Source: Duganella fentianensis
Lineage (GTDB): Bacteria > Pseudomonadota > Gammaproteobacteria > Burkholderiales > Burkholderiaceae_D
Direction of reading: 5' to 3'
Assembly (NCBI RefSeq): GCF_964031615.1
Contig: NZ_CAXIQN010000022.1
Location: forward strand, 19,090-83,089
DNA length: 64,000 bases
Shown here: in pieces, positions 3,174 to 7,442 of the stretch
Layout: every line of letters begins with the position of its first letter
How positions within the stretch are numbered: the stretch's first letter is position 1
Notes under the pieces: generated by a model
What the model was told of the DNA's origin: nothing
Seen by the model: only the letters and a program-made list of their open reading frames with translations
Databases searched by the model: none
Made by a program: the position numbers and the translations under genes

Positions 3174-3280
3174 AGTCAGTTCAGTGCAGTGAGACGCGCA
3201 TAAATGCGACATTTTTTCGGAATGCGATAGTGTAGCGTTAAAATACGGGCATCATCACAATTAGGCAGAAATGAGGCAGC

Positions 3281-3946
3281 ATGAATAACTTACGTCAGGA
3301 CTTTATCGCGTTCTCCGTCAAAACCGGCGTTCTGCGCTTCGGCGAATTCACCACCAAGGCCGGCCGCCAGTCGCCTTACTTCTTCAACGCGGGCCTGTTC
3401 CATGACGGCGCCACGCTGGCCCAGCTGGCGCAGTTCTACGCCCAGACGCTGCTCGATTCGGGCGTGGAATTCGATATGCTGTTCGGCCCTGCCTACAAAG
3501 GCATTACGCTGGCTTCGGCCACCGCTGTGGCGCTGGCAGGCAAAGGCCGTAATACTTCCTTCGCGTTTAACCGCAAGGAAGCCAAGGACCACGGCGAAGG
3601 CGGTACCATCGTCGGCGCTAAGCTGCAGGGTAAAGTGGTGATCATCGACGACGTGATTTCGGCCGGTACTTCGGTGCGCGAGTCGGTCGACATGATCCGC
3701 GCTGCCGGCGCCGAACCATGCGCCGTACTGATTGCGCTGGACCGTATGGAACGTTCGGGCAAGGATGGCGAGCTGTCGCCTAATTCGGCAGTGCAGGAAG
3801 TGGCCAATACCTACAACATTCCCGTGATTTCGATCGGTAATCTGGATGACCTGTTCAGCTATCTGAATGGCGCTGGCGCTGATCCGCAACTGCTGCAATA
3901 CAAGGATGCGGTGGCAGCCTACCGTACCCGCTACGGCGTCGCCTGA
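3281..3946 (+). CDS. pyrE: Orotate phosphoribosyltransferase
   Basis: FGEFTTKAGRQSPYFFN, FNRKEAKDHGEGG, IIDDVISAGTS. Confidence 0.97.
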   Translation: MNNLRQDFIAFSVKTGVLRFGEFTTKAGRQSPYFFNAGLFHDGATLAQLAQFYAQTLLDSGVEFDMLFGPAYKGITLASATAVALAGKGRNTSFAFNRKEAKDHGEGGTIVGAKLQGKVVIIDDVISAGTSVRESVDMIRAAGAEPCAVLIALDRMERSGKDGELSPNSAVQEVANTYNIPVISIGNLDDLFSYLNGAGADPQLLQYKDAVAAYRTRYGVA

Positions 3947-3958
3947 GCCGCGCCCGCC

Positions 3959-4816
3959 ATGATGCGTTTTTCCGAAGACCGGCTAGCCAGTTTCCGTTGC
4001 GCGCAGGGTGAGCGCCGTATCCATATCTGGGAGCCGGAAGATTCGGCGCCGCGCGCGGTGATACTGGCCATACACGGCGGCATGGCGCATGGCGGTGACT
4101 ATGTCACGCCAGCGCTGTACTTCCGCCAGCATGGCATTGCTACCGTGGCCTATGATTTGTGCGGCCATCAGGATGCGCGCCGCGTGGATATCCCCGGCTT
4201 TCACGTCTTCCTCGACGATAGTGTGCAGTTCCTGCAGTGGGTGAAGCAGAGCTATCCCGCTGTGCCGATCTATGTGATGGGCCATTCGATGGGGGCGCTG
4301 ATTGCGACCCATCTGGGGCTGGGCCACTTCGCTGGCGATGCTGCTATCAAGGGCTTTATTCTGTCGTCGCCGTACTACGTGAATGCCATCAAGGTGTCGC
4401 CGGTGCTGCTGGCGCTGTCCGGTGTGCTGGGCGCGCTGGTACCACGCATGAAAGTGCCGCTGGCATCGCTGACCGATATGCTCACGCATGACAGCACGAT
4501 CACGGCACGCCATCATGCCGATGAACGCGATGGCATCCGCGCGACGGAAATCACGGTGCGCTTCGGGAATGCGCTGACCCACGCCCAGCAAGGGCTGGCA
4601 GCACGGATGCCGGCATGGTCGCACCGGCTGTTTGCCGTTGTCGCTGGCGCTGATCAACTGGCCGATGCCGACGCGGGCGAGGCCATGCTGAAGCTGGTGC
4701 CGCCAGCGCTGCTGACCTATCAGCGCTATCCCGAGAATTTCCACGAGAACTTCAACGAACTCAATCGCGAGCAGATCTTCGCCGATATTCTGCAGTGGAT
4801 GGCGCTGCCTGCCTGA
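3959..4816 (+). CDS. Alpha/beta hydrolase (lysophospholipase/monoglyceride lipase-like)
   Basis: IHGG, YDLCGH, GHSMG nucleophile elbow, C-terminal FHENFNE. Confidence 0.85.
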   Translation: MMRFSEDRLASFRCAQGERRIHIWEPEDSAPRAVILAIHGGMAHGGDYVTPALYFRQHGIATVAYDLCGHQDARRVDIPGFHVFLDDSVQFLQWVKQSYPAVPIYVMGHSMGALIATHLGLGHFAGDAAIKGFILSSPYYVNAIKVSPVLLALSGVLGALVPRMKVPLASLTDMLTHDSTITARHHADERDGIRATEITVRFGNALTHAQQGLAARMPAWSHRLFAVVAGADQLADADAGEAMLKLVPPALLTYQRYPENFHENFNELNREQIFADILQWMALPA

Positions 4817-4965
4817 TTTAAAGCGTCAGGTGACACATGCATGCTGAGCGAGCAAGAACAGCAAGCAGATCAGACTGGTAGGCAGGCACGCATGCAGACG
4901 AGTCAGTCAGTAGGCGAGTTGGAGGGCAGTGGTAGGCGGGGCGGGTATTCTCTTTCTTTAATTTT

Positions 4966-5101
4966 GTCTATTTCGGTCTAAAACGGGCGGTTCCGGTCTA
5001 AATCAGTCCAGAAGTAGTAGAGTTTCCGAGATTTGAGACTAAAATCGCGCTTTATTACATTTCTTTAGACCTTTTTAGACTCTTCTCGGAAATTTTTAGA
5101 C
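4966..5101. repeat. Phased GTCTA/TAGAC array, left cluster
   Basis: GTCTA at 4966, 4976, 4996 (variants GTCCA 5006, GACTA 5037); inverted TAGAC at 5066, 5076, 5097; spacings 10/20/21/31. Confidence 0.9.
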
Positions 5102-5575
5102 TGTTCCCGCTAGCGCCTCCTTAGTCATCAAGCGCTGTTGCTGGTTTAGTTCGAGGCGTGAGCGGTATTGATCGGCGCGGACCCAGTAGTCATCGCCAGG
5201 CAGTCGCAGCCATACAAAGCGCCATGCATTGCGTGCGCTGGCTTGCCGGTTGGTGAACTGGGATGGCGTCAGCGATTGTCCATCTTCGGCAATGATTTGC
5301 TCGCCGACTACGATGGCAAATTCCACCTTATTGCGATGGCTAGTACGCAGCTGGGTGCCGGCAGGCAGAAAGACATTTTTCCACTGAAATCCATGCAGCG
5401 CTTGCCCGTTCTTACGGGCAACAAGCCGTTCCTTATCCAGTGTCAGCCAGCGATGCAGCAGTTCCTGAATAAAAGCCTCCGGCTGGATGTCAGGCCGCGT
5501 TACCAGCAGATGCAGTTCGAGATCGAGATAGATATCGTAAGGCAGATAGATAGCCTGTTTCGCCACATAAGTCAT
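5096..5575 (-). CDS. Hypothetical protein, putative RHH-like N-terminus plus RAMA/DUF4357-like C-terminus
   Basis: GGAGG 8 nt before ATG; 159 aa; GFQWKNVFLPAGTQLR and TPSQF...RNAW motifs; domain call is inference. Confidence 0.75.
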   Translation of the reverse strand: MTYVAKQAIYLPYDIYLDLELHLLVTRPDIQPEAFIQELLHRWLTLDKERLVARKNGQALHGFQWKNVFLPAGTQLRTSHRNKVEFAIVVGEQIIAEDGQSLTPSQFTNRQASARNAWRFVWLRLPGDDYWVRADQYRSRLELNQQQRLMTKEALAGTV

Positions 5576-5596
5576 ATCCCTGTCCTCCCGGTAAGT

Positions 5597-5733
5597 GTCT
5601 AAAAGTTGGACAGACGAATCAAAAACTAGTTCGTTTTAGACTTTTTGAGGAAATTTCTAGACCGATTTAGACCGCAACTTCCCAGTTCTAGATCGGATTA
5701 GACTCAAACAGACCTAATTAGACTGAATTAGAC
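5597..5733. repeat. Phased TAGAC array, right cluster (upstream of the 159-aa gene)
   Basis: GTCTA 5597; TAGAC 5637, 5658, 5668, 5699, 5719, 5729; variants CAGAC 5611 and 5709, TAGAT 5689; spacings 10 or 21 from 5637 on. Confidence 0.92.
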
Positions 5734-5789
5734 TGTAGTTTTGTTTGGCAATCCCGGCACAGGTGGTCTTGCCTCATGCGGCTAGCGTA

Positions 5790-5909
5790 TCAGGTGCTGA
5801 TGGCGCTGGTGAAGGTAAGCCGGTTGCCGAACGGATCATGTACCGTCATATCGCGTGTACCCCACGGCATATCCTGCAATTCTGACTGGACGTGCGGGTA
5901 GTATGGACG
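5790..5909 (-). pseudogene. C-terminal remnant of a glyoxalase/bleomycin-resistance (VOC) gene
   Basis: Translates RPYYPHVQSELQDMPWGTRDMTVHDPFGNRLTFTSAIST*; PWG..DPFGNRL is the VOC C-terminal motif; no start codon, runs into gatB terminator. Confidence 0.75.
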
Positions 5910-5946
5910 AAAAAAAGGGACGCCATATGTGCGGCGTCCCTGATTT
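5910..5946 (-). terminator. Intrinsic terminator of gatCAB
   Basis: GGGACGCC/GGCGTCCC stem (5917-5940) followed by U7 on minus strand. Confidence 0.85.
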
Positions 5947-5981: not shown

Positions 5982-7442
5982 TTAGCCGGCCAGCTTGGCT
6001 TTCAGCAGTTCCGTTAGCTGGGCCGGATTGGCTTTGCCGCGCGAAGCTTTCATGGCCTGACCGATCAGCGCATTGATGGCCGCTTCCTTGCCGGCGCGGT
6101 ACTGCTCGACCGATTTCGCATTGTTGGCGATCACCTCGTTGACGATGGCTTCCAGCGCGCCCGTGTCGGAGATCTGTTTCAGACCTTTCGACTCGATCAG
6201 CTCATCGACCAGATTGTCGTTGGCCGATTTGGCCGCCCACATATCGCCGAACAGTTCCTTGGCGGTCTTGTTGTTGATGGTGCCGTCAGCGATACGCTTG
6301 ATCATCAGAGCCAGCTGGGCTGGCGAGACGGGTGCGTCCGCGATATCCACGCCTTCGCGGTTCAGGGTGGACGACACATCGCCCATCAGCCAGTTAGCGG
6401 CAGCTTTAGCGTTTTCCTTGCCGGCGCTTTCCACTACGGCGACGAAGTAGGTCGCCATGGCTTTGGAGGCCGTCAGGATCAGCGCATCGTATTCCGGCAG
6501 CGCGTATTCGCTGATGAAGCGGGCGCGCATAGCCGCTGGCAGTTCCGGCATCGAAGCTTTGACTTGCTCGATCCACGCATCGGAAATAATCAGCGGTGGC
6601 AGGTCCGGGTCAGGGAAGTAGCGGTAATCCTGCGCGTCTTCCTTGCTGCGCATTTCGCGGGTTTCCTTGCGATCCGGATCGTACAGACGGGTCGCCTGCA
6701 CCACCTTGCCGCCGTCTTCGATCAGCTCGATCTGGCGCCGCACTTCCACGTGCACGGCTTCCTCGATGAAGCGGAACGAGTTCAGGTTCTTGATCTCGCA
6801 GCGGGTGCCGAATTCCTTCTGGCCCTTCGGACGCACGGACACGTTGACGTCGCAGCGGAACGAACCTTCCTGCATATTGCCGTCGCAAACGCCCAGCCAC
6901 ATCACCAGCGAGTGCAGTGCCTTGGCGTAGGCCACGGCTTCCGCTGCGCTGCGGATTTCCGGTTCCGAGACGATTTCCAGCAGCGGCGTACCGGCGCGGT
7001 TCAGGTCGATGCCGCTCATGCCGGCGTAGTCTTCATGCAGCGATTTGCCGGCGTCTTCTTCCAGGTGGGCGCGGGTCAGGTTGACGGTCTTGGTGACGAA
7101 TTCGCCATCCTTCTCGTAGCCGAAGGTCAGCGCGCCGCCGATCACCACAGGGTCTTCGAACTGGCTGATCTGGTAGCCCTTAGGCAGGTCCGGATAGAAG
7201 TAGTTCTTACGGGCGAACACCGATTGCGGCGCCACCTTGGCGCCCACGGCCAGACCGAAGCGGATCGCACGATCCACCGCCTGCTTGTTCATCACCGGCA
7301 GAACGCCGGGCAGAGCCAGATCCACCGGGCTGGCCTGGGTGTTGGCTTCGGCGCCGAACTTGATCGGCGAACCGCTGAAAATTTTAGATTCGGTCGTGAG
7401 CTGCACGTGGTTCTCAAGACCGATGACGACTTCCCATTCCAT
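5982..7442 (-). CDS. gatB: Asp/Glu-tRNA amidotransferase subunit B
   Basis: [37 protein letters not shown]. Confidence 0.98.

Follow-up and report, generated by a model that had tools for sequence, protein, structure and literature searches.

A 64-kb stretch of Duganella fentianensis DNA (contig NZ_CAXIQN010000022.1, positions 19,090 to 83,089 of the forward strand, assembly GCF_964031615.1; hereafter the window) carries, at positions 4943-5755, a cassette of ~0.8 kb made of one gene and two arrays of short, helically phased TAGAC/GTCTA boxes. Judging from its sequence and that of its relatives, this cassette is most likely a self-regulating, once-mobile module in which a protein is packed together with its own binding sites, of a kind not previously described. 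Its boxes are clustered and phased far beyond chance, its layout is conserved together with the gene, its repeat motif changes when the protein changes, some relatives carry it and others do not at the same place, and its gene is under purifying selection. In the literature we found no description of an element combining the outline of an insertion cassette with ends built from phased arrays for its own protein.

Phased box arrays on both sides of a single gene

Over the whole window the exact pentamers TAGAC/GTCTA occur at chance level (36 observed vs 39.4 ± 5.8 expected), and 13 of the 36 are concentrated between 4966 and 5733, in two AT-rich stretches on either side of a minus-strand open reading frame (ORF); scanning windows clear of this region, sampled every 50 bp, held three pentamers at most. 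The non-coding flanks of the ORF (345 bp) contain 12 boxes, where 0.9 are expected under a first-order Markov model trained on the same AT-rich flanks, and the highest count in 20,000 simulated runs was 7. The complete series of start spacings, one-mismatch boxes included, reads 10,20,10,31 and 10,21 on the 3' side of the gene and 21,10,21,10,10,10,10 on its 5' side. The phasing of the boxes gave a Rayleigh R of 0.97 at a period of 10-10.25 bp and, being spaced at multiples of ~10.3 bp, all of them lie on one face of the helix. The composite motif GTCTA-N5-GTCYA (one mismatch allowed) has eight matches in the window, all eight inside the cassette, against a shuffle mean of 1.9, and none of 100 shuffles reached eight. 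The first-pass annotation of this DNA had described 13 exact boxes and further one-mismatch variants, their spacings, their scarcity elsewhere in the window and the use of one box as the last codon and stop of the gene. All of this was recovered: sites and spacings were reproduced exactly on both sides of the ORF, and the minus-strand ORF does end in GTC TAA, the box at 5097-5101. Read on the gene strand, the 5' array consists of successive GTCTAA boxes and, after them, a single inverted one.

The same arrangement accompanies the gene in other genomes. We fetched eighty related genome loci (L-numbers are the labels of these loci or their contigs), and in about 45 close homologues the gene is enclosed by two box arrays that follow a common layout, so that the flanks of homologues, which the first-pass annotation had named as the place to look, show the same architecture. 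On the 5' side a coding-strand run of GTCTA begins ~190 nt before the ATG, and one inverted TAGAC box lies ~30 nt before it. The beginning of the 3' array either coincides with the stop codon or lies ~31 nt within the ORF; the array itself is made up of GTCTA followed by TAGAC ('<<< >>>') or almost entirely of TAGAC after the stop-codon box. In most loci an array spans ~168 bp, that is 16 helical turns; the 5' array of the window is one 31-bp unit short of this usual length. Distances between same-strand boxes are multiples of ~10.3 bp, with none off-phase among ~340 pairs and maxima at 31, 62 and 92 bp. The 31-bp super-period comprises two boxes 10 bp apart and an 11-bp spacer, the unit consensus being RGTCTAAWnCGG. 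In three loci (L021, L029 and L030) the 3' flank over its whole length repeats the 5' flank in inverted orientation, promoter block included. A role of the 3' '<<< >>>' palindrome as an RNA hairpin or terminator was considered and rejected as a general function, type-B cassettes having no palindrome. In loci where the 3' array begins ~31 nt within the ORF (L005, L006, L010, L012, L017, L024, L042 and others, at 4444-4480), the variable Lys/Ser/Gln-rich C-terminal tail of the protein is encoded by the boxes themselves (AGTCTAAAA gives ..SLK..).

From end to end the cassette is ordered as a GGGTATTC terminus, ~22 nt, a phased array, the gene, a second phased array, ~22 nt and an inverted terminus. 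Reading inward from either end there is GGGTATTC(C), ~14 nt more and then GTCTAATTC(A/G)GTCTA, which puts 22-23 nt between the terminus and the first box; in the fetched loci this configuration was found at cassette ends only, bar one stray match in L017. The right end of the window cassette, at 5755, reads GGCAATCCC and is a diverged terminus. As the termini and the outer parts of the arrays are mirrored at both ends, the cassette has long imperfect terminal inverted repeats (TIRs). Between one and four copies per genome occur in many Oxalobacteraceae, soil and water bacteria of the Massilia/Duganella type, in unrelated contexts, and the similarity between copies of the same genome mostly stops near the cassette ends, most clearly in the pairs L009/L011 and L007/L044, where it spans ~870-890 bp. 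It extends further in two groups, namely L006/L010 (~130 bp more upstream) and four copies of Pseudoduganella flava (L035, L036, L038 and L039, at ~3200-4760). These last form a 1.58-kb unit with ~70-bp GC-rich inverted repeats (3290-3360 and 4614-4684 in L035); the boxes in them have decayed or changed (ATCTA/TAGAT), two of the copies are convergent and 9 kb apart, and the cassette may here be nested in another repeat element.

Neither the fetched related loci (~1.8 Mb) nor the remainder of the window has arrays without the gene, with two exceptions: a cassette split by an IS66 element and an unrelated pair of GTCTAGAC palindromes near blaI. Lying 54 bp apart, these palindromes are the sole other TAGAC cluster in the fetched DNA and are probably a BlaI/BlaR1 operator without relation to the cassette. 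The search for gene-less arrays had also been put forward in the first-pass annotation, and its proposal of a self-contained protein-plus-array module is borne out by this result, by the conservation of the arrays with the homologues and by the co-variation of motif and protein described below. No linked partner gene (transposase, recombinase, ParA/ParM or toxin) recurs beside the cassette in the 80 loci, and its neighbours are unrelated housekeeping genes. Considered as a type II toxin-antitoxin locus, the cassette has no partner toxin; it consists of a single gene, with arrays occupying the DNA from its stop codon outward and up to 22 nt before its ATG. Plasmid and phage collections gave one weak match, to a Rhizobium plasmid, and zero phage matches.

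The distant paralogues, which are 30-45% identical, bear most directly on the question of what binds the boxes. They retain the order direct repeats, promoter resembling those of extracytoplasmic function (ECF) sigma factors, inverted repeats, Shine-Dalgarno sequence and ATG, and their repeat is a different one: TACTGAATT in one orthologous group (L052, L055, L060, L064, L066 and L078), AATTAG in L067 and L071, and AAATAG in L077. The repeat motif thus changes with the protein, which makes the cassette's own product the likely binder; this co-variation is the best in-silico evidence that the product binds the boxes. The junction GTCTAATTCAG is shared, and the -10/operator junction of L055, GTCTAATTCAGTA, resembles the array unit of the TAGAC subfamily, GTCTAATTCAGTCTA, so that the arrays look like an amplified operator.

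The boxes also surround a predicted promoter. The element GAACTA-N16-GTCCAA fits the published sigma-E/ECF consensus sequences, which in Escherichia coli are GGAACTT for the -35 and (T/C)GGTCAAAA for the -10 (PMC1312014), and for the meningococcal -10 TCTAA (PMC2893595). In the 64-kb window the pattern GAACYW-N16-TCYAA has a single match, at 5606-5632, and the best-conserved non-coding block of the cassettes is AAAGTCTAAAACGAACyA-N16-GGTCCAAyTTTTAGAC. Of 61 family loci, 42 have the motif GAAC-N17-19-TC[TC]AA, whose background rate is 0.006 per 130 nt; relative to the ATG its position is -57 within the close subfamily and -60 to -78 in the distant paralogues. Boxes abut the -35 and follow the -10 (in the window, GTCTA box 5597 stands just downstream of the latter); a protein bound to boxes that bracket the promoter in this way would occlude it. 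The conservation of the ECF motif across the family, whose products resemble ribbon-helix-helix (RHH) and RAMA proteins, suggests that the family belongs to an envelope-stress regulon. As an alternative, the first-pass annotation had proposed that the arrays are sigma-70 promoter islands, a view that finds no footing here, as a sigma-70 scan gave no candidate promoter for the gene and the boxes have no partner -35.

Table 1. Cassette features and nearby elements. Positions refer to the window unless a locus is named; box starts are given on the plus strand, with one-mismatch boxes in brackets.
Feature	Position	Strand	Description
Terminus, 3' side of the gene	4943..4950	plus	GGGTATTC, 23 nt outside the first GTCTA box
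3'-flank array	4966..5101	–	outer half GTCTA 4966, 4976, 4996, (5006); inner half TAGAC (5036/37), 5066, 5076, 5097
Gene, 159-aa protein	5096..5575	minus	N-terminus RHH-like, ~6-56; C-domain ~60-135 (GFQWK...RNAWRFVW) RAMA/DUF2924-like; tail variable
Shine-Dalgarno GGGAGGA	5584..5590	minus	8 nt upstream of the ATG; read from the sequence
5'-flank array	5597..5733	–	GTCTA 5597; TAGAC 5637, 5658, 5668, (5689), 5699, (5709), 5719, 5729
Sigma-E/ECF-type promoter-like element GAACTA-N16-GTCCAA	5606..5632	minus	-35 5627-5632; -10 5606-5611; boxes on both sides
Terminus, 5' side of the gene	5747..5755	minus	GGGATTGCC, diverged from GGGTATTCC; last box 22 nt further in
3'-end remnant of a VOC/glyoxalase-family gene	5790-5878	minus	..PWGTRDMTVHDPFGNRL..; relatives keep an intact VOC gene, then BlaR1 (peptidase M56), BlaI, gatB
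blaI-side palindromes, other loci	L002 1571-1642; L081 9673-9744; L085 5177-5248; L094-095 and L098 ~6050-6130; L096 2683-2755		

A putative two-module DNA-binding protein

The ORF is a genuine gene, as indicated by its Shine-Dalgarno sequence, its conserved start, its homologues and a ratio of nonsynonymous to synonymous substitution rates (dN/dS) of 0.16-0.30; at the Shine-Dalgarno position a GAAAGGA block is conserved across the family. The label of orphan given to it in the first-pass annotation has to be withdrawn, as there are at least 129 close homologues. Those with an organism name all come from Oxalobacteraceae (Massilia, Duganella and Pseudoduganella), to which the genome loci add Rugamonas, and the C-terminal two-thirds of these close homologues are strongly conserved. 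A family profile compared with 1.84 billion representatives retrieved at least 636 clusters (50% identity) at E ≤ 1e-3, which share a strand-helix-helix-like N-terminal segment, a linker, a core GYQWKxLFLPxGTxLR...RNAWxxxW and often a low-complexity tail.

Among 104 diverse relatives, DUF2924 was the commonest sub-threshold Pfam match (6 of 104, best E 0.002), followed by RAMA (3 of 104, best E 0.019); none reached the gathering score of RAMA (PF18755) or DUF2924 (PF11149), e.g. 17.4 bits vs 31.2. Their recurrence as top matches makes a remote RAMA/DUF2924 homology of the C-domain plausible. RAMA has been described as a DNA-binding domain with a partial match to DUF2924, frequently encoded by transposons or other mobile elements (PMC11342252), and it has been proposed to act as a sensor or reader of N6-methyladenine (6mA; PMC4738411, PMC6591016). 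For the N-terminal part, RHH_1 and RHH_5 were each matched once in the same set of relatives (E 0.0085 and 0.02, both sub-threshold), one relative gave a RelB-like match (E 0.023), and the best PDB match of the family profile was a ParD-type antitoxin of the CopG/Arc/MetJ group (E 0.17), with strand, helix and helix aligned in register. The assignment to the RHH proteins made in the first-pass annotation therefore has weak support: the RHH_1, RHH_5 and ParD matches and a two-helix model point to it, and no match passed its threshold.

In the AlphaFold2 (AF2) monomer, residues 1-12 are unstructured (predicted local distance difference test score, pLDDT, ~51 for residues 1-10) and are followed by helices at 13-26 and 32-56 and then by a mainly beta domain. 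When modelled alone, this C-domain reached a pLDDT of 85 and a predicted template modelling score (pTM) of 0.75. Foldseek found no credible match in the PDB for the full model (pLDDT 72), and none in the PDB or the viral BFVD for the C-domain model. The invariant residues of the family are mostly Arg, Lys, Asn, Gln and Trp, together with Thr, Gly and Pro, and the family alignment of the ORF contains no catalytic signature (DDE/DEDD/HUH/Ser/Tyr), acidic triad or conserved Ser or Tyr nucleophile. On the basis of the domain matches, the invariant residues and the lack of a catalytic motif, we read the product as a two-module DNA-binding protein and not as an enzyme, both domain assignments being leads and not established memberships. 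The C-domain, the terminal inverted repeats of a multi-copy cassette and the sigma-E/ECF-like character of the promoter are all absent from the first-pass annotation.

Residues 53-135 of the window protein, over the C-domain, and P0143 also matched the candidate defence family PDC-S57 of PADLOC, at E ~0.008-0.01, a level too weak to interpret; these matches fit the link of RAMA/DUF2924 with restriction-related contexts.

History of the locus and selection on the gene

On the hydrolase-pyrE-xth side, the flank of the window cassette is ~92% identical to that of three other species, and the cassette itself 72-75%. Synonymous rates (dS) point in the same direction: the ORF has a dS of 0.65-0.75 (dN/dS 0.16-0.30), the hydrolase gene one of 0.20-0.50 (dN/dS 0.016-0.032) and pyrE one of 0.15-0.29 (dN/dS 0-0.008), and between L002 and L003 the dS of the ORF is 3-5 times that of the neighbouring genes. 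A dS above that of its neighbours implies either turnover of the cassette or an evolution much faster than that of the surrounding DNA. The ratios computed from these sequences place the ORF under purifying selection.

All contigs with an identical pyrE protein carry the cassette, in the order hydrolase, cassette, VOC/glyoxalase, BlaR1, BlaI and gatB; in the lineage of the window the 5' part of the VOC gene, BlaR1 and BlaI have been deleted (~2 kb). More distant relatives have the hydrolase gene followed directly by BlaR1 or gatB, the cassette being absent. One contig, L092, reads ...CCGGTGGGTGTGGTGGG|AATCCCGATACCGGG..., its left flank joined to its right flank at the position of the cassette termini. 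Set against the flanks of L002 (left CCGGTAGGCGGAGGGTGGG|TATTC..., right ...TTGGC|AACCCCGATACTCGG, 12 of 15 identical), it is a candidate for an exact empty site. Two marks of a mobile cassette are thus found, inverted repeats at discrete ends and multiple unrelated sites with presence/absence polymorphism. Identical proteins always occur in one genomic context across samples, and there is no sign of recent movement. The fetched DNA contained no other element with the ends of the cassette and no parent insertion sequence (IS), and the fetched loci no gene-less array or solo end.

Some copies have decayed: L090 is frameshifted, partial copies exist, and L043 has received an IS66 insertion. L090, from a lake metagenome, gave two overlapping tblastn segments with a frameshift at 4724-5112 and is probably a pseudogene. 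In L043 (1216-1383 and 3947-4369) the 5' array lies 2.6 kb from a truncated ORF, and between them are accessory ORFs and a gene for a 526-aa transposase of the IS66 family. We also considered a TA duplication in a GGG-TA-CCC target, as in IS630-like elements, and dropped it because GGG/CCC is conserved in all copies and the right end in the window lineage lacks the TA; a likeness to the ends of the Tn3 family (GGGG...TAAG) is superficial.

Proposed mode of action and alternative readings

The preferred reading joins cooperative coating of the boxes, self-repression, bridging of the arrays and an old insertion cassette that is now a stable resident, and we give this combination as a whole about an even chance of being right. 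Dimers or tetramers of the protein would bind pairs of boxes cooperatively, building a continuous coat on one helix face of each array. Arc, MetJ, omega, ParR and ParG all coat their own repeats cooperatively. As the 5' array brackets and overlaps the promoter, its occupancy would shut off the synthesis of the protein itself; the silencing of the sigma-E/ECF-type promoter would amount to negative autoregulation of a gene driven by a stress sigma factor. Since the 3' array repeats the 5' array, in part or in full, in inverted orientation, the two coated arrays could pair, and such pairing would loop out the ~0.5-kb gene. The unit would have spread as an insertion cassette and would today be a stable, selected chromosomal resident; an origin by insertion is suggested by its discrete ends, the several unrelated sites per genome, the relatives without it and the lack of a recognisable catalytic function.

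Several observations weigh against this reading. The distant paralogues have no 3' array, the 5' array alone being sufficient there, and looping is a conjecture. The window protein has no match above threshold in Pfam, NCBIfam, PHROGs, PADLOC or the PDB sequences, and the AF2 monomer shows no N-terminal beta-strand. Moreover, homologues with an identical GTCTA box differ in the putative RHH strand (residues 6-11), which implies that the C-domain may be the reader of the box instead. With a single base of difference, the array box GGTCTAA comes close to the sigma-E -10 core of E. coli, GGTCAAA, and RNA polymerase holoenzyme may bind it in place of the encoded protein. The public RNA runs available for the sequence are all metagenomic, with a word share too low to be of use. 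Regarding mobility, no target-site duplication is found adjacent to the termini of six clean-ended cassettes, though old insertions could have lost it; the candidate empty site is a single metagenome contig with a 12/15 right-flank match; and copies within genomes are only 68-95% identical and low in number. With copies so few and so old, mobility is historical at best.

The cassette combines traits of several known systems. By analogy, it would work most like the arrays of RHH repressors and centromere-binding proteins, and in outline it resembles a mobile insertion cassette. As in ParR-parC of R1 and pSK41, ParG-parH of TP228 and the ParB system of pCXC100, direct repeats of about one turn bracket the promoter of the gene for the proposed binder; in those systems one RHH-fold protein coats the array and autoregulates, as we propose for the cassette. 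In par2 of pB171 (parC1/parC2) arrays even lie on both sides of the coding region. Type II and Ib partition centromeres and their RHH binders are described in PMC3074162, PMC3130281 and PMC9426499. In contrast to them, the cassette has no ParA or ParM partner gene, is chromosomal and multi-copy instead of plasmid-borne, encodes a protein with an additional conserved RAMA/DUF2924-like domain, and has an ECF-type promoter, mutually inverted outer arrays and conserved termini that give it a transposon-like outline.

Among repressors, RHH dimers of Arc/Mnt, MetJ, CopG and omega of pSM19035 bind adjacent short boxes cooperatively, and autoregulation by promoter occlusion would be expected here likewise. 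The boxes of Arc contain TAGA and those of MetJ AGAC, both close to TAGAC. The operators of these repressors have 2-10 boxes, whereas each array of the cassette offers up to ~16 slots of one helical turn, with a super-period of 31 bp, and a further array lies on the 3' side of the gene; the membership of its protein in the superfamily is suggested by sub-threshold matches. The omega heptads of pSM19035 (contiguous 7-bp WATCACW) do not describe the arrays, whose spacings are 10, 21 and 31 bp and never 7. Mobile insertion cassettes (MICs) are bounded by TIRs, lack a transposase and carry a passenger gene, examples being IS231-derived units, Tn3-like units in Xanthomonas and qnrD units (PMC4337579, PMC3913671). 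The cassette resembles them, and miniature inverted-repeat transposable elements (MITEs), in its short length, inverted termini, lack of a transposase, one gene of passenger size, several sites and presence/absence. It differs from both in having no target-site duplication, no identified parent IS with matching ends and copies that are few, old, selected and stable, and in TIRs that are ~170-190-bp arrays of phased boxes co-varying with its own protein, nearer to the subterminal repeats of hAT/CACTA elements than to bacterial IS ends. As to RAMA/DUF2924 (PF18755, PF11149), the C-domain matches both weakly over its conserved core, below the curated thresholds throughout, and we found no description in the literature of a fusion to an RHH-like N-terminal module or of flanking arrays.

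A related proposal, which we hold to be doubtful yet worth serious attention, makes the cassette an undescribed class of selfish or mobile module whose sole gene encodes the binder of ~30 phased sites that form its long inverted ends. The RHH-RAMA protein would carry out synapsis of the ends, self-repression and perhaps methylation sensing, its expression would depend on an envelope-stress sigma factor, and movement would be left to an enzyme of the host or of an element; such a module would be a bacterial counterpart of the subterminal repeats in eukaryotic hAT/CACTA elements. Unlikely in our view is a non-autonomous transposable element, a mobile insertion cassette, whose termini and subterminal arrays are bound by a transposase or recombinase encoded elsewhere, the ORF being a passenger, a regulator or an accessory end-binder, in analogy to TnpA of En/Spm and the subterminal hexamers of Ac. 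Much of the anatomy agrees with it, since the unit is discrete, with conserved inverted termini and long imperfect TIRs built of repeats, sits at several unrelated sites per genome, is absent here from relatives (with one candidate exact empty site), has a dS above that of its neighbours, suggesting turnover, and includes decayed or interrupted copies; RAMA/DUF2924 domains have also been reported as transposon-encoded, and beside a recombinase in phage WO. The behaviour of the cassette does not follow suit: a target-site duplication was not found, a transposase or recombinase is never a recurrent neighbour, MITE-like gene-less copies are missing from the ~1.8 Mb, there are just 1-4 copies of old divergence, across samples every identical protein keeps to one context, the gene is under purifying selection, and different species have retained orthologous cassettes. 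The repeat motif also co-varies with the encoded protein, which argues for the cassette's own product as the binder.

The company of recombinases has also to be weighed for an accessory module of recombination or DNA architecture, that is a bending factor of the recombination directionality factor (RDF) or Xis type whose phased filament would serve a serine or tyrosine recombinase of the host or of a prophage. In its favour, the termini of the cassette are inverted, phased direct repeats are typical of Xis/RDF filaments, and in phage WO the DUF2924 proteins lie directly upstream of recombinases. We regard this as improbable, as no recombinase gene is linked in the ~45 close loci, no inversion or excision variants were seen and the cassettes are stable across samples. 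We consider equally improbable a centromere-like or chromosome-organising site, at which an orphan ParR/ParG/omega-like protein on parC-like arrays would cluster the cassettes or anchor a distant NTPase. Direct repeats phased at ~10 bp do flank the promoter of the putative binder gene, as in the parC sites of R1 and pSK41, the N-terminus is RHH-like, and the cassettes of a genome, all having one box in common, could be bridged; against these stand the lack of an adjacent ParA or ParM gene at any locus, the chromosomal and arbitrary intergenic sites, the single weak plasmid match with no phage match, and distant paralogues that resemble ordinary autoregulated genes with short operators. A very improbable explanation is that the arrays are decoy islands, their GGTCTAA boxes acting as sigma-E-type -10 elements that recruit or titrate RNA polymerase holoenzyme. 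Beyond the near-identity to the E. coli core noted above, the box contains the meningococcal TCTAA, and the -10 of the true promoter (GTCCAA or GTCTAA) is itself a box variant. The array boxes, however, have no GAAC -35 at the 16-nt spacing, the full motif occurring once per cassette; the sigma-70 scan finds no promoter of the gene in the arrays; the repeats of the distant paralogues are unrelated to any -10; and phasing on one face with a 31-bp period of pairs is a trait of cooperative binding by repressors or centromere-binding proteins.

The family is large (at least 636 clusters at 50% identity) and uncharacterised, with two putative DNA-binding domains and a C-domain fold that has no solved relative. 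As the cassette pairs the protein with its probable target sequence, its function can be addressed directly by simple binding assays. If the preferred reading is right, the cassette would show how a repressor-operator pair can turn into a self-contained unit in the shape of a transposon, and the ECF sigma-E stress regulon of Oxalobacteraceae would gain an autoregulated member. A natural, compact and highly cooperative protein-array tool (~16 phased sites per array) would also become available for use as an insulator, as a switch or in DNA looping. Through the link with RAMA/DUF2924, domains proposed to read 6mA, the cassette would become a tractable model of that domain in bacteria.

Two features of the DNA next to the cassette are worth pointing out. 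The spacer between the hydrolase stop codon and the cassette (4817-4940) is a low-complexity tract of the GCAAGCAGG/GGTAGGC type, expanded to a long tandem repeat in the metagenome relative L090 (~4350-4560); the contigs L089 and L091 break inside it, and it therefore looks like a hypervariable microsatellite. On the other side, just past the gatB stop codon, a strong hairpin with A- and T-runs at its sides (5916-5941) is kept in the cassette-less L092 and is likely a bidirectional intrinsic terminator.

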